Notes under the pieces: generated by a model
What the model saw: only the letters and a program-made list of their open reading frames with translations
What the model was told of the DNA's origin: nothing
Database searches by the model: none
From: Armatimonadota bacterium
GTDB lineage: Bacteria > Armatimonadota > Fimbriimonadia > Fimbriimonadales > GBS-DC
DNA: 64,000 nt
Assembly (NCBI GenBank): GCA_037445735.1
Contig: JBBIJY010000001.1
Span: 96,001 to 160,000 of the forward strand
Direction of reading: 5' to 3'
Made by a program: the position numbers and the translations under genes
Shown: piece after piece, positions 3,202 through 44,018 of the stretch
How positions within the stretch are numbered: the stretch's first letter is position 1
Layout of the letters: every line of letters starts with the position of its first letter

Positions 3202-4485
3202 CTACCGATAGCCTATCAGCACGGGGTTCTCCAGCACGCGCTTCAGCTCCTGTAAGAATCGGGCGCCCGTCGCACCGTCCAGCACGCGATGGTCGCACGA
3301 GAGCGTGACCTTCATGCGGGAGCGAGGCTGAATGGAGCCGTCGTCCATCACCACAGGCACCTTCTTCACCGCGCCAACCGCCAGAATCGCGCTCGCGGGC
3401 GGGTTGATAATCGCCGCGAACTCGTCAATATCGAACATGCCCAGATTCGACACGGTAAAGGTGTTGCCCGTCATCTCATCAGGTAACAGTTTGCCCTCGC
3501 GCGCCTTCTGGATGAGCGCCTGCGCCTCCTGCGCAATGCGCAGCAGCGGCTTGCTCTCGCAGTGGCGCACAACGGCGACCAGCAGACCCTCGTCCACCGC
3601 AACGGCGATCCCGATATGGATGCCGTCGGCATAGACCAGCGTCCCGTCGCGATAGGAGGCGTTGACAAGGGGGTGCTTCTCAATCGCGACGGCACACGCC
3701 TTGAGAACCAGATCGTTCACGCTGACGCGCACGCCCTCCTCGAGGCGATTGAGCGTTTCGCGCAGGGCGAGCGCTTCCTCCATGTCGATTTCGATGGTGA
3801 GGTAGAAGTGGGGGATGGTCTGCTTGGCTTCGGTGGTGCGCTGAGCGGTGATCTGGCGCAGGCGGTTCAACGACTCCGTGCGGGCGGCGATGGGCGCAGG
3901 TGCAGGCGCGACGGCAGCGGGTTGCGCCGCGCGCTGCTGGAGATACGCCAGCACATCGCGCTCCACGATGCGCCCCTGCGGTCCCGTGCCTTTCAGCAGG
4001 CGCAGGTCGATGCCATGCTCCCGCGCGATTTTGCGAGCGAGCGGGGAGGCGAGGATGCGTTCAGCCCTCACCCCCTGACCCTCTCCCCCGCTGGGGGCGA
4101 GGGGAGTTTCAGCCCTCTCCCCCACTGGGGGAGAGGGTACGGGTGAGGGGGCAATCGTGGGCGGGACGCCCACGCTACTCGGTGGTACGGGTGAGGGGGC
4201 TTCGGCAGGTTTGCCGTCCCGATCAAGTTCGGCGGGCAGCGATTCGCCTTCGGCTAAGATATACGCCAGCGGGGTGTTGATGGGCACGGTCGCGCCCTCC
4301 TGAACACGAATGCCGCGCAGGATACCCGATGCGGGCGCCTCCAGCTCAATCGTTGCCTTGTCGGTCGCGATTTCAGCAATCGGCTCGCCCGCTTTGACCA
4401 TCTCGCCCTCCTGCTTGAGCCAGCGGACGAGCGTGCCCTCCTCCATCGCGTCGCCCATCTTCGGCATTATCACGGTCTGCATCAT
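3202..4485 (-). CDS. pdhC: Pyruvate dehydrogenase E2, dihydrolipoamide acetyltransferase
   Basis: Lipoyl domain (TDKA), subunit-binding domain (ASPLARK...GTGPQGRI), catalytic DHRVLDG. Confidence 0.93.
   Translation of the reverse strand: MMQTVIMPKMGDAMEEGTLVRWLKQEGEMVKAGEPIAEIATDKATIELEAPASGILRGIRVQEGATVPINTPLAYILAEGESLPAELDRDGKPAEAPSPVPPSSVGVPPTIAPSPVPSPPVGERAETPLAPSGGEGQGVRAERILASPLARKIAREHGIDLRLLKGTGPQGRIVERDVLAYLQQRAAQPAAVAPAPAPIAARTESLNRLRQITAQRTTEAKQTIPHFYLTIEIDMEEALALRETLNRLEEGVRVSVNDLVLKACAVAIEKHPLVNASYRDGTLVYADGIHIGIAVAVDEGLLVAVVRHCESKPLLRIAQEAQALIQKAREGKLLPDEMTGNTFTVSNLGMFDIDEFAAIINPPASAILAVGAVKKVPVVMDDGSIQPRSRMKVTLSCDHRVLDGATGARFLQELKRVLENPVLIGYR
4065..4151. repeat. BoxC-like double-hairpin palindromic repeat, in frame inside the pdhC linker
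   Basis: ccctcaccc..ccctctccccc-gct-gggggcgagggg..ccctctccccc-act-gggggagaggg-tac-gggtgagggg. Confidence 0.9.
4155..4178 (-). repeat. GTAG-type REP-like palindrome
   Basis: Minus strand reads GTAG-CGTGGGCG-TCC-CGCCCACG (perfect 8-bp stem). Confidence 0.6.
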
Positions 4486-8903: not shown

Positions 8904-10298
8904 ATGGCGCAGAGAATCGAAAAGGATGCGCTGGGCGAGCGGGCGATACCCGCCGAAGTCTACTGGGGGTTGCAGACCCTGCGAGCGCAGGAGAACTTCC
9001 CCATCAGCGGCATCACCGAGCCGCCCCTGATGATCGACGCCTATGTGCTGCTCAAAAAAGCGTGCGCACAGGCGAATATGGAACTGGGGCTGATCCCTGA
9101 ACCCATCGGCAAAGCCATCATGCAGGCTGCCGACGAGGTGCTATCAGGCAAACTGCGCGACCAGTTCCCCACTGACATCTTCCATCAGGGCGCCGGCACC
9201 TCGTTCCACATGAATGTGAATGAGGTGCTGGCAAATCGCGCTATTGAGATCCTGGGCGGACAAAAGGGCGATTACACCATCGTTCACCCGAACGACCATG
9301 TGAACTTCGGGCAGTCGACGAACGACACCTTCCCGACGGCGATGCGCATCGCGGTGCGGATAGCGCTGGAGCAACTGTTCCCCGCGCTGGACCAGCTAAC
9401 GGAGGGGTTCACGCTCAAGGGGCGCGAGTTCGACCATGTGTTGAAGTCGGGGCGCACCCACCTGCAGGACGCCGTGCCCATCCGACTGGGACAGGAATTC
9501 ACCGCCTACGCCGTCACGGTGCGCAAGTGCCGGCGCCTGCTGGAGACTGCCGCGCATGAGGTGGAGGAGCTGGGCATTGGTGGCAGCGCGGTCGGCACCG
9601 GACTGAACACGCACCCGCAATACCGCTTCCGCGTGGTGGAACTGGTGCGCCAGTGGACAGGACTGCCCTTCCGACCCGCCGATGACCTGCGCGAGGCGAT
9701 GCAGAGCCAGATGCCCATCGCCTGCGTTGGCGCCGCCCTTCGCATCCTCGCGCTGGAAATCACCCGCATCGCTAATGACCTGCGCCTGCTGGCTTCCGGA
9801 CCCCTGACAGGCTTCGCCGAAATCGTGCTGCCCGCCGTGCAACCAGGCAGCAGCATCATGCCCGGCAAGGTCAACCCCAGCATCCCCGAAATGGTCAATA
9901 TGGTCTGCTTCCAGGTGATCGGTTGCGCCACCACCATCGATTACGCGGTGCAGGCAGGTCAGCTGGAGCTGAATGTAATGATGCCCGTGATGGCGTATAA
10001 TGCGCTCTTCGCGCTGCAGATTATCACAAACGCCCTGCGCATGTTCGACGAGCGGTGCGTGCGGGGCATCGTGGCGAACGAGGAAAAGTGCCGCTGGTAC
10101 GCCGAGACCAGCCCCAGCCTCGCCACCGCGCTCAACCCCTATGTGGGCTATGCAACGGCAGCAGAAATCGTGAAACAGGCTCTGCGTGAGAACCGCAGCA
10201 TCATCGATGTGGTGCGCGAGCGCGGACTGCTCACCGAAGAGCAGATTCGAGAACTGCTCGACCCCTACAAAATGACCGAACCCAACCTGGGAGATTAG
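8904..10298 (+). CDS. aspA: Aspartate ammonia-lyase (class II fumarase/aspartase superfamily)
   Basis: HPNDHVN, GRTHLQDA, GSSIMPGKVNP; TATAAT and SD upstream; fumC not excluded. Confidence 0.75.
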   Translation: MAQRIEKDALGERAIPAEVYWGLQTLRAQENFPISGITEPPLMIDAYVLLKKACAQANMELGLIPEPIGKAIMQAADEVLSGKLRDQFPTDIFHQGAGTSFHMNVNEVLANRAIEILGGQKGDYTIVHPNDHVNFGQSTNDTFPTAMRIAVRIALEQLFPALDQLTEGFTLKGREFDHVLKSGRTHLQDAVPIRLGQEFTAYAVTVRKCRRLLETAAHEVEELGIGGSAVGTGLNTHPQYRFRVVELVRQWTGLPFRPADDLREAMQSQMPIACVGAALRILALEITRIANDLRLLASGPLTGFAEIVLPAVQPGSSIMPGKVNPSIPEMVNMVCFQVIGCATTIDYAVQAGQLELNVMMPVMAYNALFALQIITNALRMFDERCVRGIVANEEKCRWYAETSPSLATALNPYVGYATAAEIVKQALRENRSIIDVVRERGLLTEEQIRELLDPYKMTEPNLGD

Positions 10299-11164
10299 AG
10301 CGCTCCGCGCGCGAGCTGTTGCAGCACGGGGTCGTCGGGGAAGTAAGTTAGCCCACGCCGCGCCCATTCGCGCTGCTCACTGAGCCGCTGCTCGCGATGC
10401 TTCAGGATTGCCAGCCAGCGATAGGCGTCGCGCCAGCCCTCACGCTCAAACGGGTTCTGCAGAATCATCGAAGCGTTGCCCGCCTGCACCCACCGATCGC
10501 CGTTTGCAACCGCTTGCCGAAAGTAGCGCTCCGCCTGCGCATCATCGCCCAGCTGCACCAGCGTGTGGCGCCCCAGCTCGGTGAAGAGGGCAATACTGCG
10601 CGGGTTGTGGCGCGCGCCCTCCTTCAAAAACGCCATCGCCTCGCGCAGGTTGCGCTTATTATCGAACAGAATCATCTGCGCCCCGACCAGATAGCCCTGC
10701 ACGAAGGTCGGGTCGACCCATGTCATGAAGCGATAGAGGGGCAGCACCTCGCGCACAGGGCGATGGAAGTGATGGCGCACATCGAAAAAGGGCTTCACCT
10801 GCCGCTCGATATCGCCCCAGAGCCAGCGCGGGTCGCGCTCCGGTTCGGGGATGACGCTGGTCTCATCTTCATGATGGTGAACCTCGTCCGCGCTGGAGGC
10901 TTCCCGCGCGGTGCCCAGCCGCTTCTCCCGTTCGGTCATCGGGCGCAGTTGCACGCCGCCATGCGTGTATTCGTCCGTTTTGACCCAGAGATAGCCTGCC
11001 AGGCTGGAGCGCAGCTCGCCTATCACCGAGACCATCGCATGGCGGTCATAAAGCGTCTGCGCAGCCAGCGTGTCGGCACGCTGGACCTGCACAGGCAACG
11101 CGAGCCGCACCGCGACACCCCCAACCAGACCCAGCGGAACCAGCACCAGCGCTATTGATCGCAT
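10295..11164 (-). CDS. Membrane-anchored TPR-like protein (PilG/XapA-like)
   Basis: N-terminal TM; DPTFVQGY..EAMAFLKEGARHNP helical-repeat pattern; third gene of the ABC operon. Confidence 0.6.
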   Translation of the reverse strand: MRSIALVLVPLGLVGGVAVRLALPVQVQRADTLAAQTLYDRHAMVSVIGELRSSLAGYLWVKTDEYTHGGVQLRPMTEREKRLGTAREASSADEVHHHEDETSVIPEPERDPRWLWGDIERQVKPFFDVRHHFHRPVREVLPLYRFMTWVDPTFVQGYLVGAQMILFDNKRNLREAMAFLKEGARHNPRSIALFTELGRHTLVQLGDDAQAERYFRQAVANGDRWVQAGNASMILQNPFEREGWRDAYRWLAILKHREQRLSEQREWARRGLTYFPDDPVLQQLARGAL

Positions 11165-11167
11165 CGC

Positions 11168-11950
11168 TCACCCCAGCACCTGCCTGCGAAACCGCAGCCA
11201 GCCCAGCAACAGATAAGCGCCGCCGCTACCGAGCGCGTAGACCGCCATCGCGCCTATCACCCACCAGGCAATCGGGTCCCAGTCGTACACCACCTTCTGG
11301 CTCATGTCGAAAAGGTCATAATGGGGCAAAACGCCGTAGAGCCAGTTGAGCCAGAGGGCATCCAGCCCGCGCTCCCAGTGCGCCATCAGCAGGAGCCGAT
11401 TGAACAGACCCGACCCGAACGCCAGTATCAGGCTGAGAGTCACATTCGCCGCGGGCGTCAGATAGACCGAGAGCGCGACCCCCAGCGCGCACAGCCAGCC
11501 GATGCCGATCAGCTTCAGCAGCAGATACTGCCCGAAGATGGGCTTGAGCGGGACGCCCAGCATCAGAAGCAGCAGCCATGCCGCTCCCGCCAGGATCAGA
11601 AAGCATGCGCCCGCCGTGATGAACGCGGTCAACCACTTGCCCATCAGCAGCTGCCCGCGCGTGATGGGGCGCGCCAGCAGCGGATAAATCGTGCGCCGCT
11701 GAACCTCGTCGGGCAACTGACGCGCCGCTATCAGCACCGTCAGCACCGTGCTGAATATCCCCATCGCCAGAAAGGTGGTATCTTTGATAAAAATCTCCAG
11801 CCCGCGCACGCCGAACACGCGAAAGGTCGACGCGCCCAGCACCATCAGCGCCATCAGCATCAGCACCACATAGAGGTCTTTGCGCCGCAGGGTCTCCAGC
11901 AGTCCCGCGACGGTCAGCGCACGACAGACCTGAATCAGCGAGACACTCAT
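11168..11950 (-). CDS. ABC-2 type permease (PilI/XapB-like)
   Basis: About 6 TM; EVQRRTIYPLLARPITRGQLLMGK; ATG overlaps the ATPase stop. Confidence 0.8.
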   Translation of the reverse strand: MSVSLIQVCRALTVAGLLETLRRKDLYVVLMLMALMVLGASTFRVFGVRGLEIFIKDTTFLAMGIFSTVLTVLIAARQLPDEVQRRTIYPLLARPITRGQLLMGKWLTAFITAGACFLILAGAAWLLLLMLGVPLKPIFGQYLLLKLIGIGWLCALGVALSVYLTPAANVTLSLILAFGSGLFNRLLLMAHWERGLDALWLNWLYGVLPHYDLFDMSQKVVYDWDPIAWWVIGAMAVYALGSGGAYLLLGWLRFRRQVLG

Positions 11951-12708
11951 GCTGCCACCTCCTGCGCCAGCGCGTCTGCGCCCTGCTGCACCGTGCGGAT
12001 GAAGTAGTCCTCCAGCGATTCGAATCGTCCGCTCAGCTCGCTGAGCGTATGCTCGGCGATGAGGCGTCCGCGATGGATAACCAGAATGCGGTCGCACAGG
12101 CTGGCGACCTCGCCCAGCTCGTGCGAGGAGAAGAAGATGGTGGCGCCCCGCTCGCGCTGAAGACGCAGTAAATCGCGCAGCTCGCGCCTGCCAACGGGAT
12201 CAAGCCCTGACGAGACCTCATCCAGAATCAGCAGTTTCGGGTTGCCCAGCAGCGCCTGCGCGATACCGAGCCGCTGGAGCATGCCTTTGGACAGGTGGCG
12301 ATTGAGTGTGTGCATTTTAGGGGCGATGCCGACCGCCGCCAGCAGTGCTTCGATCTGGGCATTCAGGCTGTGCCCCGTTAGCCCCTGCAGGGCGCCGTAG
12401 AGGCGCATGGTCTCGTAAGGGGTCAGGTAGGGCGAGTAGAGCGCGGTTTCGGGCAGGAAGCCGACCAGCTGGCGGGCGCGCGCGTCGGTCGCTGGCTGCC
12501 CGAACAGGCGCACCTCGCCTGCCGTCGGCGGCTGGAAGCCCATCAGCACCTTGATAGTTGAACTCTTGCCGGCGCCGTTGACGCCCAGAAAGCCCACAAT
12601 CTCGCCCTCGCGCACCCCGAACGAGAGGCGATCCACCGCGCGCACAGGCGGTCGGAACGCCTGCCGATACTCCACCACCAGCTCGCGCACCTCAATCGCC
12701 CACATCAC
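11947..12708 (-). CDS. ABC transporter ATP-binding protein (PilH/XapD-like)
   Basis: Walker A GVNGAGKS, signature LSKGM, Walker B LILDE. Confidence 0.9.
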   Translation of the reverse strand: MMWAIEVRELVVEYRQAFRPPVRAVDRLSFGVREGEIVGFLGVNGAGKSSTIKVLMGFQPPTAGEVRLFGQPATDARARQLVGFLPETALYSPYLTPYETMRLYGALQGLTGHSLNAQIEALLAAVGIAPKMHTLNRHLSKGMLQRLGIAQALLGNPKLLILDEVSSGLDPVGRRELRDLLRLQRERGATIFFSSHELGEVASLCDRILVIHRGRLIAEHTLSELSGRFESLEDYFIRTVQQGADALAQEVAA

Positions 12709-12713
12709 CGCCT

Positions 12714-12746
12714 ATTATCGGCAACCGTTCGATGCCTGATTAGCCC
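12714..12746 (-). promoter_or_regulatory. Sigma28-like bipartite promoter GGGCTAATC-N12-GTTGCCGATAAT
   Basis: GCCGATAA is the sigma28 -10 consensus; same motif and spacing at 41095-41127. Confidence 0.6.
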
Positions 12747-12801
12747 GAAAGTTGCCTGGTCTCCACTCGCGCAGGTATAATCGCTGCACTTCAGGTGAAC
12801 G

Positions 12802-13617
12802 ATGGATAGGGCGGCGCGGGTTCTGCTCATCTGCAACGCAGCCATCGTGCTGCTCAGCATCGCGGGCTTCTGGGCGTTTACCAGCGGTCTGCCTGTGCCC
12901 GCGTGGAACTACTACGCGCTCACAAAGTGGCTGACCATCGCGAATGTAGTAACGGGTGTGTTGTGTGCGCTGTTCGCGATGGCTCACGAGCAGGGCTGGC
13001 GCCCGACGCTTGTTCTGCTCGCGCTCGCCACCATTCTGGCAGGTACCATGGAGCTGATAGGCACCACCACCGGCTTCCCCTTCGGGCGGTATCAATACAC
13101 CGATTTGCTGGGCTATAAACTGCTTGGGCATGTGCCGCTGCTGATTCCGCCCAGCTGGTTCATGATGCTCTATCCCGCGTTGCAGCTGGCATCGCTGCGG
13201 CTGGATGGCTGGCTGGCGCGCGCGGGCGTGGCGGCGGTGATTCTGACCCTCTGGGATGTCGCACTGGATCCCGCCGCGACAACCGGCTTCGCGCAGTGGC
13301 ACTGGCACCAGCAGGGTTCGTTCTGGGGACGGGTGCCAGGGGTGCATTTTTATTCGATGCCACTGGAGAACTGGCTGGGCTGGCTGCTAACAGGTGGGCT
13401 GATCAGCGCACTCTATTTGCGCCTGCAACCGCAATGGAGACCCGTTCGCCACAGCGTGAGCCTCTGGCTCTATCTGGTGCAGTGTGGGTTTGTGGCGGTC
13501 ATGGCGGTGCTGCTGGAACGCTGGTGGGCAGCCATTTGCTGGCTGATGGGATTTGGGGCAGTGCTGACGGGACTGCGTTTCTGGTCGGCTTCGGTCAGGG
13601 TTCGCGCAGAGTGTTAG
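12802..13617 (+). CDS. Carotenoid biosynthesis membrane protein (CruF-like 1',2'-hydratase, DUF422)
   Basis: ELIGTTTGFPFGRYQY, VPLLIP, WDVALDP, PLENWLGW; crt gene context. Confidence 0.8.
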   Translation: MDRAARVLLICNAAIVLLSIAGFWAFTSGLPVPAWNYYALTKWLTIANVVTGVLCALFAMAHEQGWRPTLVLLALATILAGTMELIGTTTGFPFGRYQYTDLLGYKLLGHVPLLIPPSWFMMLYPALQLASLRLDGWLARAGVAAVILTLWDVALDPAATTGFAQWHWHQQGSFWGRVPGVHFYSMPLENWLGWLLTGGLISALYLRLQPQWRPVRHSVSLWLYLVQCGFVAVMAVLLERWWAAICWLMGFGAVLTGLRFWSASVRVRAEC

Positions 13618-18437: not shown

Positions 18438-20654
<2,217 letters not shown>

Positions 20655-25382: not shown

Positions 25383-25411
25383 ATTATACCATGCCTGACC
25401 TGCTTTGTCAA
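25383..25411 (-). promoter_or_regulatory. Consensus sigma70 promoter of the infC-rpmI-rplT-pheST operon
   Basis: TTGACA-17 bp-TATAAT with extended TG. Confidence 0.85.
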
Positions 25412-26676
25412 GTGGGTGGTTGCATGGTTGCCTGCCATGCATGCAACGCGCGCAGGGTGGCAGGAGGCAGGGCGTTCGCCGAGACCTGCACGCCCACCAC
25501 GAACGGCTTGCTCATGGCGAGCGTGGACACCTGCTGCAGCCACTCCAGCAGCGGTTGCTCACCACTGGACGCCCGCCAGAAGGGATTCGCAGCAGCGGGC
25601 AGATTCAGCGTCAGATGCAGCGGCTTGCCCAGATCACCGTAATGCTCCAGCAGGCTGTCCAGATCGAGCAGGTCGAAGTCGTGCTCGTAGAGATGGAGAT
25701 GGACACCCTCAAACGGCACGCCCCACTCCACACAGGCATGCAGCAGCTGGAACGCCGTGTGGCGATGATGCAGACTGTAGTGGGCGCCGAGCAGGCGCAC
25801 GATGCCGAAATCGACCGCTCGCGCCGCCTCACACAGCACGCCAATCAACCTGACCTGCTCGCGCTCATTGCTCCCGATAGGGTTCAGGCTAAACGGCAGG
25901 TCGGACAGAACCTCCCAGTAGCGGATTCGCCCGCGATAGAGTCGGATGGCGTCGCAGAGACGCTGGAGGAGCGTGTCATGCAGGGGCTGGGGCAGCTGGG
26001 CTGCCTGCCGGATGAAGGCGGCGTCCAGCACCGATTCGCCGCGCACGAGCCGTCGCTCCTGCTGGGCTTGCTGAACCAGTGGTTCCCAGCGTTCGAGCGC
26101 AGGCTGGGTCATGCGGAGGCTGAGCTGGTTGAAGGGCGGATGAAGCGCCTGCATTATGGACAGGTCTGGCTCGTTGATGGCGGTGCCCCACACGAACAGT
26201 TCGCGCCCGCCCATGCGCTGGAGGCGCGTGCGTGCCACCGCAAGCGCAGCCTGCTCGCCTGCCTGCAGGCTCTTCTGCAGGCTCTGCAATAACGGCTCGC
26301 GTCCCGAATCGTCAGGCAGGAGCATCTGTGCCTGAATGCTCTCCAGCGGCACACCCTTGCGCTGATACTGTCTGATGAAGCTCAGACTGCGTTGGTAGCG
26401 GCTGCGAGCCAGCTCGCGCTCCAGCACAATCTCGCGCGTCTGCGAGCCGTAGCCCCTGCCGTTCGACCAGAGATAGAGGCAGCCGTAATTGGGCACCTCG
26501 AGCGGATAGGCAACGCCGAACGGCTCGCCCGGATAGGGAAGGCAAACCGCTCCCGTACAGAACTCACCCGCCTGAATGGGGAGCGGCTCGCGCCGAATGT
26601 CGGTCAGCCGCAGGAGCGAGGCGTCCAGCGCTGCGTCCATCAATCGGATACGAATCGGTTCCGCCACAGCCCTCAC
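25408..26676 (-). CDS. GH10-like TIM-barrel hypothetical protein, catalytic residues apparently absent
   Basis: YRGRIRYWEV, GVPFEGVHL, GKPLHLT resemble GH10 strands; start uncertain. Confidence 0.55.
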   Translation of the reverse strand: MRAVAEPIRIRLMDAALDASLLRLTDIRREPLPIQAGEFCTGAVCLPYPGEPFGVAYPLEVPNYGCLYLWSNGRGYGSQTREIVLERELARSRYQRSLSFIRQYQRKGVPLESIQAQMLLPDDSGREPLLQSLQKSLQAGEQAALAVARTRLQRMGGRELFVWGTAINEPDLSIMQALHPPFNQLSLRMTQPALERWEPLVQQAQQERRLVRGESVLDAAFIRQAAQLPQPLHDTLLQRLCDAIRLYRGRIRYWEVLSDLPFSLNPIGSNEREQVRLIGVLCEAARAVDFGIVRLLGAHYSLHHRHTAFQLLHACVEWGVPFEGVHLHLYEHDFDLLDLDSLLEHYGDLGKPLHLTLNLPAAANPFWRASSGEQPLLEWLQQVSTLAMSKPFVVGVQVSANALPPATLRALHAWQATMQPPT

Positions 26677-36825: not shown

Positions 36826-37416
36826 TCAGCTTTGCCGACTGAGCGTGATGGTGCGACTTTCATCAGGTTGGGGCTGGATGGTGATATGCCAGTGGTGGCG
36901 GGGTGTGTAGTCGAAGCCGAGCGCGGGCAGGGTTTCGCCCCACTCGATGAGGGTGATACCGCCGCGCTCCAGCAGTTCGTCCAGCCCCAGCGTGTGCAGT
37001 TGCGCCGCGCTCTCGATGCGATAAAGGTCGAGGTGGAACAGGGGCAATCCCGCGAGCGCGGGCGGCTGGCGAATGGTGTATTCGTTCACGAGGGTGAAGG
37101 TGGGGCTGCGAATCGGCTCGGTGATGCCGAGCGCGCGGCACAGCCCACGAATGAGCGTGGTCTTGCCTGCGCCCAGTGCGCCGCTCACTGAGATCAGCGT
37201 GTCGGGACGGAGCAGGCGGGCAATCTCCGCGCCCACCGCTTCGGTCTGTTCAGGGGAGCGCGTGTGCCAGCCGGTTGCCCCCTCACCCGTACCCTCTCCC
37301 CCGCTGGGGGAGAGGGGTTTGGATTCTCCCTCGCCCCCGCTGAGGGAGAGGGGTTTGGATTCTCCCTTGCCCCCGCTGGGGGAGAGGGGTTTTGAGCTAT
37401 TCGGCTTCCGACTCAT
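36826..37416 (-). CDS. tsaE: t6A biosynthesis ATPase with a repeat-derived N-terminal extension
   Basis: GALGAGKT, SPTFTL, HLDLYR, IEW. Confidence 0.9.
   Translation of the reverse strand: MSRKPNSSKPLSPSGGKGESKPLSLSGGEGESKPLSPSGGEGTGEGATGWHTRSPEQTEAVGAEIARLLRPDTLISVSGALGAGKTTLIRGLCRALGITEPIRSPTFTLVNEYTIRQPPALAGLPLFHLDLYRIESAAQLHTLGLDELLERGGITLIEWGETLPALGFDYTPRHHWHITIQPQPDESRTITLSRQS
37278..37389. repeat. BoxC-like repeat amplified as three 36-bp tandem hairpin units at the tsaE 5' end
   Basis: Units at 37292, 37328, 37364: ccctctcccccgctgggggagaggggtttggattct. Confidence 0.92.
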
Positions 37417-37789: not shown

Positions 37790-38862
37790 GAGCGTCTCAC
37801 CTCCGAGCGCAGGTTTCGAATCTGCTCCAGCAGTTCGCGTTCGCGCGGGCTGAGGTGCCTGGGCACCGTGATGCGGACACGGGCATAGAGGTCGCCGCGC
37901 TGACCACCTGCGACCGGGATGCCCTTGCCTGCCAGTCGGAAGCGGGTGCCGCTCTGGGTACCGGGCGGGATTTTCATTGTGACGGTGCCGGTGGGCGTGG
38001 GCACGCTCACCTCGCCGCCGAGCGCGGCAGTGAGATAGTCCACATCGACTTCGGTGTAGAGGTCGTTGCCCTGCCGTTCGAAGCGCGGGTCGGGCGCGAT
38101 TTTGATGCGCAGGTAGAGGTCGCCACGCTGTCCATCGCTGCCGGGGGCGCCTTCACCCTGCAGGCGCAACCGTTGCCCTTCGGCGACGCCCGGCGGCACC
38201 GTGACGGTCAGCTGGCGCGTGCGCTGGACGATGCCTCTGCCGCGGCACTGACCGCAGGGTGCACCGATGCGCCCGGTGCCGTTGCACTCATCGCAGGGCA
38301 TCTCCACGCCGAGCAGGCTGAACCGTCGGCGTCCGCGCCCACCGCAGGCGGGGCAGCTCTGGCGATGCTCTGCGCTCTCGCCCGTGCCACCACAGCGCGA
38401 GCAAAGCTCTTCTGTGTTCAGACGAATGGTGCGGGTTGTGCCCCGAATGGCTTCGTCGAGGCTGATTTCGAGCGTGTGTTCGATGTCGCGGGGAGCGGTG
38501 CGCACGCCGAAGGTGGCGCCGCCACCACCGCGTAGCAGCTGTTCGATGAACTCGGCGAAGCTGGTGAAGGGCATCTCGGTGCCCCAGGGCGCGCCGTCGA
38601 AGCCCTCGCCGTACTGCTCGCGCATGCGCTGATAGGCTTGCCACTGCTCGCCATAGCGGTCGTAGGCGGCGCGCTTTTCAGGGTCGGACAGCACCTGATA
38701 GGCTTCGTTGATCTCCTTGAACTTCTCTTCGGCTTCTTTGTCGCCGGGGTTGACATCGGGGTGATACTGGCGTGCGAGTCGGCGATACGCCGCCTTGATC
38801 TCCTTCTCGGTGGCGTTGCGCGGCACCCCAAGAATCGCATAATAATCTTTGAACCCTCGCAT
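37786..38862 (-). CDS. dnaJ: Chaperone DnaJ
   Basis: J-domain HPD; four CxxCxGxG repeats. Confidence 0.92.
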
Positions 38863-38893
38863 CGCTCGTTCACCCCGATACGGGCTGCTGTGG

Positions 38894-38935
38894 CCCCCTC
38901 ACCCCTGTACCCTCTCCCCCGCGCGGGGGAGAGGG
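38894..38935. repeat. BoxC-like single-hairpin repeat, dnaK-dnaJ intergenic
   Basis: ccccctcacccc-tgta-ccctctccccc-gcgc-gggggagaggg. Confidence 0.9.
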
Positions 38936-38941
38936 TCGCTT

Positions 38942-40840
38942 TTACGACTCGCGATACTCGGCGTCGATCACATCATCGCCGCTGGAGCGGGTGCTCCCGT
39001 CGGTGCTGCTGCCTGTGCCGCCCGACGGCTCCGCCGCGACGCGCTGATACATCTGCTCGGTGATTCGGTAGCTGAGCTGTTCCAGCTCGCTCATCAGCGA
39101 CTGCACGCGCTCGTGGTCCTGCGTCTGAATGGCGCTGCGCAGGTCGCGGATAAGCGTTTCGGCGCGTTCGCGGTCGCCCGCTGCGACCTTATCGCCGTGC
39201 TCGCGCAGGAGGCGCTCCACATCGTAGGTGAGTCGGTCAGCGCGGTTGAGCAGTTCGGCGCGTTCGCGCGCCTGGCGGTCGCGCTCGGCGTTCGCCTCCG
39301 CCTCTTTGATCATCCGCTCCACCTCCTCGCGCGAGAGGTTGGTGGAACCTGTGATGCGGATGCTCTGCTGGCGCCCCGTGCCGAGGTCCTTGGCGGTGAC
39401 ATTCAGGATGCCGTTGGCGTCGATGTCGAAGGTGACCTCGATCTGGGGCACGCCTGCAGGCGCAGGCGGGATGCCGTCCAGATGGAACACGCCGAGCAGG
39501 CGGTTATCGCGCGCCATCGGTCGCTCGCCCTGATAGACGCGCACCTCCACGCTGGTCTGCCCGTCGGCAGCAGTGGTGAAGATTTCCGACTTGCGCGTCG
39601 GGATGGTGGTGTTGCGGGGCACCAGCACGGTGAAGATGCCGCCTTTGGTCTCGATACCGAGCGAGAGGGGCGTTACATCCAGCAGCACGATATCTTTCAC
39701 CTCGCCCGACAGCACGCCCGCCTGAATCGCGGCGCCAATAGCGACCACCTCGTCGGGGTTCACGCCCTTGTGCGGCTCCTTGCCTGTGATCTGGCGCACC
39801 ATCTCCTGCACTCTGGGGATGCGCGTGGAGCCGCCCACCAGGATCACCTCGTCCACATCGGTCGGCTTCAGCCCCGCGTCCTCCAGCGCACGGAACATCG
39901 GACCCTTGAGGCGTTCAAACAGGTCGGCGCACAGCTCCTCGAACTTGGCGCGGGTGAGCGTCATATCGAGATGCTTCGGACCGCTGGCGTCCGCCGTGAT
40001 GAACGGCAGGTTAATCGTGGTGGTGGTGACGCTGGAGAGCTCGATTTTGGCGCGTTCGGCGGCTTCCTTGAGGCGCTGCAGCGCTTGCCGATCCTGGCGC
40101 AGGTCGATCCCATGCTCGCGCTTGAACTCATCGGCAAGGTAATCGACGATGCGCTGGTCGAAGTCGTCGCCACCGAGGTGGGTGTCGCCCGCCGTTGCTT
40201 TCACCTCGAACACGCCGTCGCCGACCTCCAGAATCGACACATCGAAGGTGCCGCCGCCCAGATCGAACACCAGAATGGTCTCGTTGCTCTTTTTATCGAG
40301 TCCGTAGGCGAGCGCGGCGGCGGTCGGCTCGTTGATGATGCGCAGCACTTTCAGCCCCGCGATTTCGCCCGCGTTCTTGGTGGCGGTGCGCTGGGCGTCG
40401 TTGAAGTAGGCGGGCACGGTAATGACCGCTGCCGTCACTGGCTCGCCCAGATAGGCTTCGGCGTCCGCCTTGAGCTTTTGCAAAATCATCGCCGAAATCT
40501 CTTCGGGGCGATAGGTTTTGTCCACCGCGGGGATGTAGACCGCCGCATCACCTTTGGAATCGGCGACCACCTTGTAGGGCACGCGCTTGCGCTCCTCCTC
40601 CACCTCGTCATAGCGCCGCCCCATAAAGCGCTTGATAGAGAAGATGGTATTTTCGGGGTTGACGATTGCCTGGCGCTTGGCAGGTGCGCCGATGAGTCGT
40701 TCACCCGTTTTGGTGAAGCCGACAACCGAGGGGCAGAGCCGTCCGCCCTCCGCCGTCGGAATGACCACCGGCTCGCCACCTTCCAGCACGGCAACCACCG
40801 AGTTCGTTGTGCCCAGATCAATACCCACAACTTTTGCCAT
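38942..40840 (-). CDS. dnaK: Chaperone DnaK
   Basis: [25 protein letters not shown] ggaggg. Confidence 0.97.
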
Positions 40841-40906
40841 CGCTGTCTCCCTCCGTCTGTTATCTATTCTGGCTATACGGCAACTGCTGGTCAGCAGGTT
40901 CCCGTT

Positions 40907-40951
40907 TTTGAGTGGCTCCATTATACCTGACTTGAGGGCACTATTGTCAAG
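40907..40951 (-). promoter_or_regulatory. dnaK promoter with HAIR-like HspR operator
   Basis: TTGACA-19 bp-TATAAT; CTTGAGG-N7-TGTCAAG at 40931-40951; half site TTTGAGT at 40907-40913. Confidence 0.7.
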
Positions 40952-41000: not shown

Positions 41001-41075
41001 AAGCCCCTCACCTGCACGCGGGGGCGAGGGGCTTCGTTTCTCCCTCTCCCCTCTGGGAGAGGGTCGGGTGAGGGG
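41001..41075. repeat. BoxC-like double-hairpin repeat, dnaK/pilB intergenic
   Basis: aagcccctc..gaggggctt; ccctctccc-ctct-gggagaggg-tc-gggtgagggg. Confidence 0.85.
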
Positions 41076-41094: not shown

Positions 41095-41127
41095 GGGCTA
41101 CTCTTTGGTGCGCGCGTTGCCGATAAT
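41095..41127 (+). promoter_or_regulatory. Sigma28-like bipartite promoter GGGCTACTC-N12-GTTGCCGATAAT
   Basis: Ends 8 nt before the pilB ATG; matches 12714-12746. Confidence 0.6.
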
Positions 41128-41135
41128 CTTTGCCG

Positions 41136-42800
41136 ATGGTTCGGCGATTCACCGATGTGCTGATCGAGGAGGGCATTCTGGACGCGCAACGGCTGGGCGA
41201 GCTGATAGCGTCCCGCACCGACCTGCAGGAGCCGATTGAAGATTATCTGGTGCGCATCGGCGCGATTGATGAGCGCACGCGCGCACGGGCGTTGAGCCTG
41301 ATGTACGGTGTGCCCCTGCTCGATTTCCAGACGCTCACTATTCAGCCCGAAGCAGTGGCGCTGGTGCCGCGCGAGGTCGCCCTGCGCTGCAAGGCGATGC
41401 CGATCGCCCTCAACGGCACGCAGCTGGTCGTCGCGATGGCGGACCCCGCCGATATTGTGGCGGTGGACGACCTGCGTGCCGCCACCGGGCGCGACATCAC
41501 GATTGCTGTCGCCTCCCGACCCCAGATTCAGGACGCGCTCATGCGCTACTACGGGCTGGACGAGGATGTGCGCAGCGTCGTGCAGCGCATCCGCACCGCC
41601 GAAGAAGAGGACATCTCTGTCATCCGTCTGGTGGAAGCCGTCATCAACCGTGCGATTGCCGACCGCGCCAGTGACCTGCACATCGAGCCGCTGGAGAACC
41701 ACACGCGCGTGCGCGAGCGAATCGATGGCGTGCTGCGCGAAACCTCCGAAATCCCCCAGGAGCTGCATGACGCCGTCGTCGCCCGAATCAAAATCATGTC
41801 GAATCTCGACATCGCTGAGAAGCGTGTGCCGCAGGATGGGCGCATCGCCTATCGCATCGGCGGGCAAGCCTACGACCTGCGCGTCTCCACCTACCCCTCC
41901 ATCTACGGCGAGAAAGTGGTGCTGCGTATCCTGGAGAAATCGACCGAGCGGTTCGATTTAGAGAAGCTGGGGCTCGATCCCCAGCAGAAAATACGCCTCA
42001 AACGCATCATCGAGCGTCCGTACGGCATGCTGATTGTGTGCGGTCCGACGGGTTCGGGCAAGACGACCACGCTCTATGCCGCGCTCAGCCATCTCAACAC
42101 GCCCGAACGCAACATCATCACGATTGAAGACCCGGTGGAATATCAGTTGCCGGGCATCGTGCAGGCGAACATTAACCCGCGTGCGGGGCTGACCTTCGCC
42201 ACCGGGTTGCGGGCGATCCTGCGTCAGGACCCCGATGTGGTGCTGGTGGGCGAGATTCGCGACCGGGAGACGGCGGTTATCGCGGTGGAAGCGGCGCTTA
42301 CAGGGCACATGGTGTTCTCCACGCTGCACGCGAACGAGGCGGCGGGCGCGCCAGGGCGACTGATCGAGATGGGGGTGGAACCGTTCCTGCTGGCGTCCGC
42401 GCTGGTGGGCGTGCTGTCGCAGCGACTGGTGCGCCTGCTCTGTTCCGAGTGCCGCGAGCCGACCGAACCCGATGCGGAGCTGCTGGCCCGCCTGCGCCTG
42501 ACGCCCGACATGCTGAAGGGCTGTACCGTGTACACCGCGCGCGGCTGCCATCGCTGCCAGTTCACCGGCTTTCGCGGGCGCAGCGCGATTATGGAGCTGA
42601 TGGAGGTGGACGACGCCATCCGGCACGGCATCATGCACCATCAGCCGTCAGCGACCCTGCGCGAGGCTGCCATCCGCAACGGCATGGTGCCCCTCTATCA
42701 GGACGCCCTCCGCCTGGTCAAAGCGGGGCGCACCAGCCTCGAAGAGGTGCTGCGCGTGGTCGCCAACGATATCGACGAACCCATACCCCAGGCGGCTTAG
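41136..42800 (+). CDS. pilB: Type IV pilus / T2SS assembly ATPase (PilB/GspE)
   Basis: [29 protein letters not shown], tetracysteine motif. Confidence 0.88.
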
Positions 42801-42809
42801 CGAATCGCC

Positions 42810-44018
42810 ATGCCCATCTATGAGTGTCGTATTCGCACCAGGAGTGGGGAGCCGCGCCAGCTGACACTGGAGGCGCCCAGCCTGCAGGTGGCGGTCGAAC
42901 GCCTGCACCGCGAGGGGCATTTTGTGCTGGCGGTGCGCGAGCAGCAGCGTCCGACCGAGCGACGTGGGATCACCCTCTTCAAACGCGCACGGCTGGACGA
43001 GCTGGTCGCCTTCAGCCGCGAGTTCGCCGTGATGATCCGCGCGGGCGTGCCCATCATGGAAGCCCTGCAGACGCTGATTGAGCATATGAAGCCGGGCGTG
43101 CTGCGCGAGGCGCTCATGAAGGTGCGCGATGAGGTGGAAGGCGGCATCCCCCTCTCCGAATCGATGCGCCGCCAGCCGCACGCCTTCCCCGACCTGTATG
43201 TGAACCTGGTTCAATCAGCAGAGGTGAGCGGTAGCCTCGAAACGGTGCTGAAACGCGCCGCCGACTACCTGAGCAACGCGCTCGCGCTCCAGCGGCGCGT
43301 CAAGTCCGCCATGATCTACCCCGCAGTGGTGCTGACCGCCACGCTGTTCGTGATGGCATATATGGTGGTGTTCATCATGCCGAAGTTCTCCGAGATGTTT
43401 CGGCAGATGAATGTGAATTTGCCGCTCACGACGCAGGCGATGGTGTGGCTGGGCGATCTGGGTCAGCGGCACAAGTTGCTCGTGCTGGCATCGCCGATTT
43501 TCGTTCTGGGCGGGCTGTGGGGCGCGTGGCAGGTGCCACGCATCCGCGAGCCGCTCAGCTACTGGATTGCCCGCATGCCGCTCGTGGGCGACCTGACACG
43601 CAAAGTGGTGCTGACCCGCACGCTGGCGGCATTACAGACGCTGATCAGCACGGGCGTCGCGTTGCCCCGCGCACTGGAGCTGTCCGCCGCCACTTCCGGC
43701 GACCACCGCATGCGCCGCGCGTTAGCCACCGTGCGTGCCGAAGTGGAAGCGGGCATCCCGCTCGCCGTCGCCATGCGTGAGACGGGCGCGTTCCCCAACC
43801 TGGTCATCCAGCTGGTGGCAGCAGGCGAGAAGACAGGTGCACTCCCCGAAATGCTGGGCGAAATCGTCGAGTTCTACGACGACGAGGTACAGCAGAAACT
43901 GAAGGGGCTGACCTCCACGCTGGAACCGCTGCTGATGCTCTTTCTGGGGCTGATTATCGGCATCTTCGCCTTCTCGGTCATCTCACCCATCTACGACCTG
44001 ATGGACACCATCAAGTAG
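42810..44018 (+). CDS. pilC: Type IV pilus / T2SS platform protein (PilC/GspF)
   Basis: Two T2SSF domains, AMIYP, GEKTG, LEP. Confidence 0.88.
   Translation: MPIYECRIRTRSGEPRQLTLEAPSLQVAVERLHREGHFVLAVREQQRPTERRGITLFKRARLDELVAFSREFAVMIRAGVPIMEALQTLIEHMKPGVLREALMKVRDEVEGGIPLSESMRRQPHAFPDLYVNLVQSAEVSGSLETVLKRAADYLSNALALQRRVKSAMIYPAVVLTATLFVMAYMVVFIMPKFSEMFRQMNVNLPLTTQAMVWLGDLGQRHKLLVLASPIFVLGGLWGAWQVPRIREPLSYWIARMPLVGDLTRKVVLTRTLAALQTLISTGVALPRALELSAATSGDHRMRRALATVRAEVEAGIPLAVAMRETGAFPNLVIQLVAAGEKTGALPEMLGEIVEFYDDEVQQKLKGLTSTLEPLLMLFLGLIIGIFAFSVISPIYDLMDTIK

Follow-up and report, generated by a model that had tools for sequence, protein, structure and literature searches.

Flagellar promoters of the sigma-28 (FliA) class follow a published consensus with a -35 element TCTAAAG and a -10 element GCCGATAA, the last A of which is placed at -8 in the Pseudomonas aeruginosa geometry given in PMC12784957. 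Sigma factors of this family have also been connected with type IV pili: according to the account in PMC8325347, WhiG drives pil genes from mapped starts in Rubrobacter, with an (RsiG)2-(c-di-GMP)2-WhiG switch (c-di-GMP, cyclic di-GMP), and FliA-family sigma factors drive both pili and flagella in the zoospores of Actinoplanes missouriensis. For Synechocystis, PMC2532724 describes the group-3 sigma factor SigF in connection with the pilA1 promoter, pilus expression and motility. A further point of comparison is the Myxococcus PilG/PilH/PilI set, matches to which are found in almost all bacteria studied, as ATP-binding cassette (ABC) transporters are multi-copy, and are hence unspecific (PMC6060248). 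Here we report on two closely similar boxes in a 64,000-nt window of an Armatimonadota genome (assembly GCA_037445735.1, contig JBBIJY010000001.1), one in front of an ABC-2 exporter operon and the other in front of the type IV pilus genes pilB and pilC (Table 1). Judging from their class and conservation, both boxes are predicted FliA/sigma-28-class promoters, and we consider it probable that the flagellar FliA regulon extends, through such promoters, to pilus ATPases and the ABC-2 exporter.

All coordinates refer to the 64,000-nt window unless a contig is named; G000 denotes the assembly of this genome (2.78 Mb, 62% G+C, 59 contigs), C-numbers its contigs and G002 a congener. On the minus strand, 12746..12714 reads GGGCTAATC-N12-GTTGCCGATAAT, followed by 8 nt and the ATG at 12705; on the plus strand, 41095..41127 reads GGGCTACTC-N12-GTTGCCGATAAT, followed again by 8 nt and the ATG at 41136. 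In both cases the 8 nt are counted from the trailing T of GCCGATAAT. The preliminary description of this stretch had reported identical spacing, agreement at 20 of the 21 box positions and the distance of 8 nt to an ATG, all of which proved exact when both strands were re-read; both boxes are intergenic. Within the 2.78-Mb assembly the pattern GGGCTA.TC-N12-GTTGCC occurs just twice, namely at these two boxes, and the 12-mer GTTGCCGATAAT has four occurrences. Forty first-order Markov simulations of the window (9-N12-12 mask, at most 1 mismatch) gave a mean of 1.15 pairs, and under the same mask the real window holds 5 further isolated pairs and one repeat family; the similarity between the two boxes alone is at chance level and not significant. 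The pair becomes meaningful because of its intergenic position, the fixed 8 nt to the start codon, the match to flagellar promoters and the conservation in relatives. The ATG codons at 12705 and 41136 are favoured as starts over the in-frame GTG 12708 and TTG 41130, since orthologues keep the former and not the latter.

Listing all TGCCGATAA sites of the genome gives an intergenic class with CTAAAG, CTGAAA or CTCCAG at the register that is occupied by CTAATC and CTACTC in the two boxes. The -10 TGCCGATAAT together with a -35 in this register precedes the Pfam-confirmed genes fliC, flgM, fliD, fliM, flgA, a flgB-like rod gene, flgF/G, flhB and flhA (at least nine flagellar operons plus flgM), and the same class is found before the gene of an SRP54-type, flhF-like GTPase. 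Both reported sites agree with the -10 GCCGATAA at 8/8 positions, and the earlier identification of GCCGATAA as a sigma-28-type -10 is borne out by the same element at fliC, flgM and other flagellar genes. The accompanying claim of a non-canonical -35 was not upheld: CTAATC (TAAT) and CTACTC (TACT) stand in the register of the genome's CTAAAG/CTGAAA and match TCTAAAG partially, and GGGCTAATC is not kept in G002.

A position weight matrix (PWM) built from nine flagellar promoter sites, flhA not among them, detects 23 sites of at least 20 bits in the genome, against 0.33 in shuffles. Several observations weigh against placing the two boxes in this class and under FliA. They score 14.0 and 13.8 bits on the flagellar matrix (left-out flagellar sites: 14.4-31.5), and at 14 bits or more the genome yields 144 matches against about 30 in shuffles, such that neither site is distinct by score alone. 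At both sites the -35 box lacks A at positions where the flagellar -35 conserves it, not even G002 (where the protein is 98% identical and the -10 is kept) retains the GGGCTAATC box of the ABC promoter, and the spacing from TAAA to GCCGATAA is 1 nt longer here than in the P. aeruginosa fliC promoter as given in PMC12784957. The relatives that were compared are non-independent samples. Moreover, the assembly holds no fliA (none over the NCBIfam cut-off, and tblastn with the FliA of a congener was also empty), and a 6035-nt fliA contig from run X1, a possible source sample, has no physical link to this assembly.

Conservation was evaluated in 40 related genomes of the same order, which were queried with four proteins. 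The pattern [GAT]CCGA[TCA]AAT is present within 100 nt upstream of the ABC ATPase in 20/20 orthologous family loci, at a genome-wide expectation of 0.0042 per 100 nt. In 19 of the 20 loci this -10 stops 7-10 nt short of the ATG, which has a G directly in front of it, and most of the family loci carry a canonical CTGAAAAA/CTTGCAAA-type (TAAA/GAAAA) -35. Outside the family the ABC -10 is located 15-16 nt upstream in 3/4 loci. As judged by this comparison the ABC-2 operon promoter is ancient and family-wide, and it is the most strictly conserved of all sigma-28 promoters considered. It might be argued that the two sites resemble each other by chance and that one or both are not promoters, given that pairs of such quality are expected about once per window, that both PWM scores are mediocre and that the antisense strand of pilin N-terminal coding sequence yields equally good matches inside genes. 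We regard this as very improbable, as the element is kept at orthologous positions in 20/20 (ABC) and 4/4 (pilB) loci within otherwise diverged DNA, and the distance to the start codon is fixed at both sites.

The same loci bear on the possibility that the boxes are housekeeping promoters of leaderless mRNAs, read by the primary sigma factor, with GATAAT as an ordinary -10 hexamer and the preceding GCCG incidental. GATAAT and TATAAT agree at 5/6 positions, and the distance at which TATAAT boxes peak before open reading frame (ORF) starts in this genome equals that of the reported sites. The primary sigma factor, however, would not need the GCCGA (or TCCGA) that is kept before TAAT in 20/20 ABC orthologues, nor the TGCCGATAATC found in 4/4 pilB promoters. 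The identical element stands in front of fliC and flgM, and on the gene strand neither box has a sigma-70-type site or a TTGACA-like -35 at 16-18 nt. A housekeeping origin is thus unlikely, and assignment to the sigma-28 class is preferred.

The history of the pilB-pilC promoter is different. Upstream of pilB, the DNA of four species of the genus cannot be aligned except for two invariant blocks, CTA-TC and TGCCGATAATC, whose spacing is fixed; the -35-register box reads CTAATC in 3/3 congeners. A leaderless geometry is seen in 2/4 species, and the other two have leaders of 25-55 nt with GGAGG. The pilB orthologues of three other genera have a secretin gene immediately in front and lack such a promoter, which argues that pilBC became detached in this genus and gained its own sigma-28 promoter. 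The secretin that precedes pilB in those genera is the orthologue (62%) of the C23 secretin of this genome. Behind the latter lies a stretch of lower-G+C DNA with no recognisable gene (G000:C23:40591-43471), as would be expected if an insertion or rearrangement had split pilBC off from the cluster. From these comparisons, the pilBC promoter appears as specific to one genus and acquired after detachment from the secretin operon. The preliminary description had proposed a shared promoter that links the ABC operon and pilBC; both do carry the same class, but they did not evolve together as a pair, the ABC promoter (family) being far older than that of pilBC (one genus).

Two further pilus loci have promoters of this class. 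The ExeA/MshM-like AAA gene that heads pilM-N-O-secretin-pilB2 is preceded by one, 60-88 nt upstream, in 22/23 family loci, and a third PilB paralogue (PilB3) has one in this genome and in 17/20 relatives (with two one-mismatch variants). By their upstream sequences, then, three type IV pilus loci are tied to predicted sigma-28 promoters: pilB-pilC, ExeA-like-pilMNO-secretin-pilB2 and PilB3. Neither the C23 HlyD-MacB-pilMNO-secretin cluster nor the C6 pilB-pilT cluster has a site of at least 11 bits upstream. For pilin genes the picture is negative, a -10-like 8-mer being present within 150 nt upstream of just 1/36 pilin-like ORFs; enrichment of the motif at pilin genes was rejected on this count. 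A large class of false positives of the PWM comes from the strand antisense to the conserved N-terminal coding region of pilins. A prepilin-type N-terminus is encoded by 36 ORFs of the genome, most of them 250-340 aa long and with a near-identical helix ...FTLIELLVVIAIIAILAAILFPVFAQAR....

Summarizing the scan, which the preliminary description had suggested as a check, motility genes are strongly associated with the motif and a pilMNO cluster is headed by a site, but pilin genes are not covered. The proposed pilus regulon under a sigma28-like factor stands in so far as the three pilus loci are linked; it is not a dedicated regulon, but coincides with the flagellar FliA regulon of at least nine operons plus flgM.

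The assembly has about 20 sigma-70-family genes, and the search for FliA/WhiG-like sigma factors had a mixed outcome. Canonical FliA (TIGR02479, about 240 bits at a cut-off of 189.6) is present in 39/41 genomes of the order, including 3/3 congeners, and a sigma-GGDEF fusion is found here, but no protein of this assembly passes the FliA cut-off. Around fliA in G002 (L121, G002:C20:27000-35000), some 6.5 kb are not matched anywhere in the assembly; at the start of contig C3, tRNA genes and an integrase fragment mark the point where synteny with G002 ends. The 6035-nt contig of run X1 covers the fliA region of G002 at about 94% identity. Given that this value is also the divergence of the present genome from G002 elsewhere, the absence of fliA is probably a gap in the assembly and not a gene loss, and the gene is probably present in the source sample. 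A gene for the anti-sigma factor FlgM (PF04316) is present in this genome.

The sigma-GGDEF fusion is the sole group-3 sigma factor of the assembly (SigB/F/G 172 bits, FliA_WhiG 107 bits, both below cut-off). Its gene follows a T2SSE ATPase and a T2SSF gene (PilT/PilC-like) and precedes a CBS-GGDEF gene, and relatives have matching open frames of 416-492 aa. One could therefore propose that this other group-3 factor reads the two boxes and the other pilus-linked promoters, with FliA serving the flagellar ones only; the -35 CTAnTC that is common to the two reported sites and unlike the flagellar -35 would fit such a division. We find this quite unlikely, since the -10 of the reported sites is the exact FliA consensus, the ABC orthologues of other genera have the canonical TAAA/GAAAA -35 of flagellar genes, and canonical FliA is near-universal in the order and probably present here. 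SigB/F-type sigma factors, moreover, are known to use different -10 elements.

If FliA is taken as the cognate factor, RNA polymerase with FliA would read both boxes, with TGCCGATAAT as a perfect -10 and CTAATC/CTACTC as a weak version of the CTAAAG-type -35 of this genome, at the same spacing. Counting the last A of GCCGATAA as -8 puts the predicted transcription start 0-2 nt ahead of the ATG, so that the ABC-2 operon and pilB-pilC would be expressed from leaderless or nearly leaderless mRNAs; both start site and mode of translation are predictions. The suggestion that the genes are probably leaderless is strengthened by the geometry at both sites and by the 7-10 nt found in 19/20 ABC orthologues, and the flagellar sigma-28 sites at flgF/G, flhB, flhA and flgA show the same geometry (7-11 nt). 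Genome-wide, TATAAT boxes peak 6-9 nt before the starts of long ORFs, from which it follows that leaderless mRNAs are likely common in this genome. The ABC ATPase is thus probably translated from an mRNA that is leaderless or has a leader of 1-2 nt.

The flagellar regulon would, in this scheme, include flgM, three type IV pilus ATPase loci, the ABC-2 exporter and a family-specific ORF of 422 aa, and its expression would track FliA activity as restrained by FlgM. Between the double sigma-28 promoter and flgM a c-di-GMP-I-GGC aptamer is placed (Table 1). Because flgM lies behind this riboswitch, c-di-GMP could indirectly set the levels of flagella, pilus motors and exporter together. A wider picture, which we put forward with reserve, is that of a single FliA-FlgM circuit throughout the family, tuned by the flgM riboswitch, which might co-activate the whole flagellar apparatus, the three pilus motor loci and a dedicated ABC-2 exporter with its tetratricopeptide repeat (TPR)-like partner, much of it by way of leaderless mRNAs. 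Cells would then activate swimming and pilus functions jointly and not reciprocally, and the exporter could be an unrecognised part that the motility apparatus needs, for example for the export of a surface glycan. Sigma-28-type sites are likewise carried by glycosyltransferase and UDP-glucose dehydrogenase genes.

Table 1. Coordinates of the predicted promoters, genes and RNA element discussed in the text (window positions, or contig positions where a contig is named).
Feature	Position	Strand	Details
Predicted sigma-28 (FliA)-class promoter, ABC-2 operon	12714..12746	minus	-35-register CTAATC 12743..12738; -10 GCCGATAA 12722..12715; TGCCGATAAT 12723..12714
ABC transporter ATPase, 252 aa, operon gene 1	11947..12705	minus	Pfam ABC_tran E 3e-27
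ABC-2 type permease, ~260 aa from ATG 11950	11168..11950	minus	Pfam ABC2_membrane_4 + ABC2_membrane_2
Third gene, 289 aa, N-terminal hydrophobic anchor	10295..11164	minus	Pfam TPR_14 E 3.2e-4, below cut-off
Predicted sigma-28-class promoter, pilB-pilC	41095..41127	plus	-35-register CTACTC 41098..41103; -10 GCCGATAA 41119..41126
pilB, type IV pilus/T2SS-E assembly ATPase, MshEN N-terminal domain	41136..42800	plus	Pfam T2SSE E 8.5e-135, MshEN E 1.6e-21
pilC, T2SS-F platform protein	42810..44018	plus	Pfam T2SSF E 5.1e-63
Third predicted promoter of the class in the window, CTCAAAAT-N13-ACCGATAA	26683..26711	minus	PWM 15.7 bits
422-aa ORF behind third promoter	25408..26676	minus	no Pfam or NCBIfam match
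Sigma-GGDEF fusion, 429 aa	L046, G000:C30:12947-14236	minus	sigma-70 regions 2, 3, 4 (group-3 type) + C-terminal GGDEF diguanylate cyclase domain
c-di-GMP-I-GGC riboswitch aptamer	L203:129-211 = G000:C7:90378-90460		Rfam 58 bits (gathering score 59), E 4.6e-13

The three genes of the ABC-2 trio (ATPase, permease and third protein) are tightly packed into one operon. In NCBIfam the ATPase has its best matches to the DrrA, RbbA and GldA types, all below cut-off, and neither the permease nor the 289-aa third protein has any match; ATPase orthologues are 74-98% identical across the family. The permease start overlaps the ATPase stop (ATGA), is preceded by GGAGG, and lies downstream of the ATPase in 22/24 related loci, the remaining 2 of which end too early. 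The third gene follows the permease in 12 related loci and was not seen in the genus-g3 loci. The clusters nearest to its product in the ESM Atlas consist of TPR_14 proteins with a length of about 290 aa; these come largely from Armatimonadota and Verrucomicrobiota, with others from Elusimicrobiota, and we take them as a lead only. The operon has a fumarase gene and a carotenoid biosynthesis gene as neighbours and is not located in or beside a pil cluster; the pil loci of this genome are on other contigs or 28 kb from the trio. The Geobacter Xap exporter may offer a parallel to the trio. Back to back with the sigma-28 promoter of the operon, a sigma-70-type promoter-like TTGCCT-18-TATAAT (12752-12781, plus strand, 10/12 positions) faces the divergent carotenoid biosynthesis gene (12802..13617) and is the sole such site nearby.

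On the other side of the pair, pilB-pilC is divergent from dnaK. A long ORF with a Pfam NAD-GH match (38849-40930, plus strand) runs antisense to dnaK (38942..~40830, minus strand); we take it to be the well-known spurious shadow frame of Hsp70 genes and not a gene. Short G+C-rich repeats of the ctccctctcccctctgggagagggtcgggtgagggg type occur at 37280-37392, 4111-4149, 19733-19767 and 41018-41051; they are tandem with a 36-nt period near 37300, and one copy lies directly upstream of the pilB promoter.

The third promoter of the window lies directly after the valS stop codon, and the GTG start comes 6 nt past ACCGATAA (5 nt past the trailing T). At the start of the 422-aa ORF, 20/21 family loci retain such a -10; the ORF itself occurs in 21/24 family genomes and in 0/16 of the genomes of other families that were searched. 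Further sigma-28-type sites are located at C32:11512, C6:23264, C13:55061, C34:7501, C20:49386, C6:66715 and C12:43286. The genes behind these seven sites encode two glycosyltransferases (one of them also with TPR repeats), a UDP-glucose 6-dehydrogenase, a 1556-aa WD40 protein, a CAP-domain protein, a MerR regulator and a hybrid response-regulator/histidine kinase. A strong site, CCTGAAAAT-N-TGCCGATAAT, at C7:52955 (locus C7:52700-53400) is followed by about 110 nt with no convincing ORF, a hairpin and a T run, and the locus has a sub-threshold Rfam match to ar14 (32.4 bits against 58.8); this site may belong to a FliA-dependent small RNA.

The analysis reveals no new kind of promoter or sigma factor. 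What it offers is an initial, self-consistent view of how motility genes are controlled in a phylum where experimental genetics is nearly absent, including a usable promoter consensus and a regulon that would unite flagella and type IV pilus motors. It would extend sigma-28-family control of pili beyond Actinobacteria, and the pilBC unit provides a recent case of genes that gain a sigma-28 promoter after rearrangement. For the ABC-2 exporter with its TPR-like partner and putatively leaderless promoter, the function may best be sought among motility or surface phenotypes.

Compared with the FliA/sigma-28 (SigD) late flagellar promoters of E. coli, Salmonella, P. aeruginosa and B. subtilis, as these are described, the -10 GCCGATAA is identical and the -35 occupies the TCTAAAG position; here too the class precedes fliC and flgM, a FlgM gene is present, and relatives have canonical FliA. 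Unlike in those late-gene systems, the class here reaches to early flagellar genes (flhA, flhB, fliM, rod genes) as well as to pilus ATPase loci and an ABC-2 exporter; the position of many of its sites would suit leaderless mRNAs, and the -35 of the two reported sites is weak. Our literature search turned up no report of direct FliA promoters at pilB in proteobacteria.

The trio resembles Myxococcus xanthus PilG/PilH/PilI in that an ABC ATPase, an ABC-2-type permease and a third protein occur together, here with predicted co-regulation with pilus assembly genes. Whereas PilGHI belong to the pil cluster (PMC6060248), the trio here stands outside it and has a flagellar sigma factor as predicted regulatory partner; the likeness drawn here is one of gene content. 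Synechocystis SigF is likewise an alternative sigma factor linked to pilus genes and motility, but as described in PMC2532724 it acts at promoters of another type, has the major pilin as its known target and involves no flagella.

Closest are the systems of Rubrobacter and Actinoplanes, with which control of type IV pili by the sigma-28 family has already been published and which share a flagellar-clade consensus TAAA / GCCGATAA ahead of pil transcription units and a link to c-di-GMP (PMC8325347). In comparison with what is reported there, the present case comes from another phylum (Armatimonadota), the regulon is predicted from sequence, and it includes a conserved ABC-2 exporter; the anti-sigma factor is FlgM behind a c-di-GMP riboswitch instead of RsiG, which was not searched for here. 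As far as can be predicted, three traits are particular to this case: the targets are assembly ATPases and a platform cluster and not pilins (1/36), the leaderless ABC-2 operon is strictly conserved, and FlgM is placed behind a c-di-GMP riboswitch.

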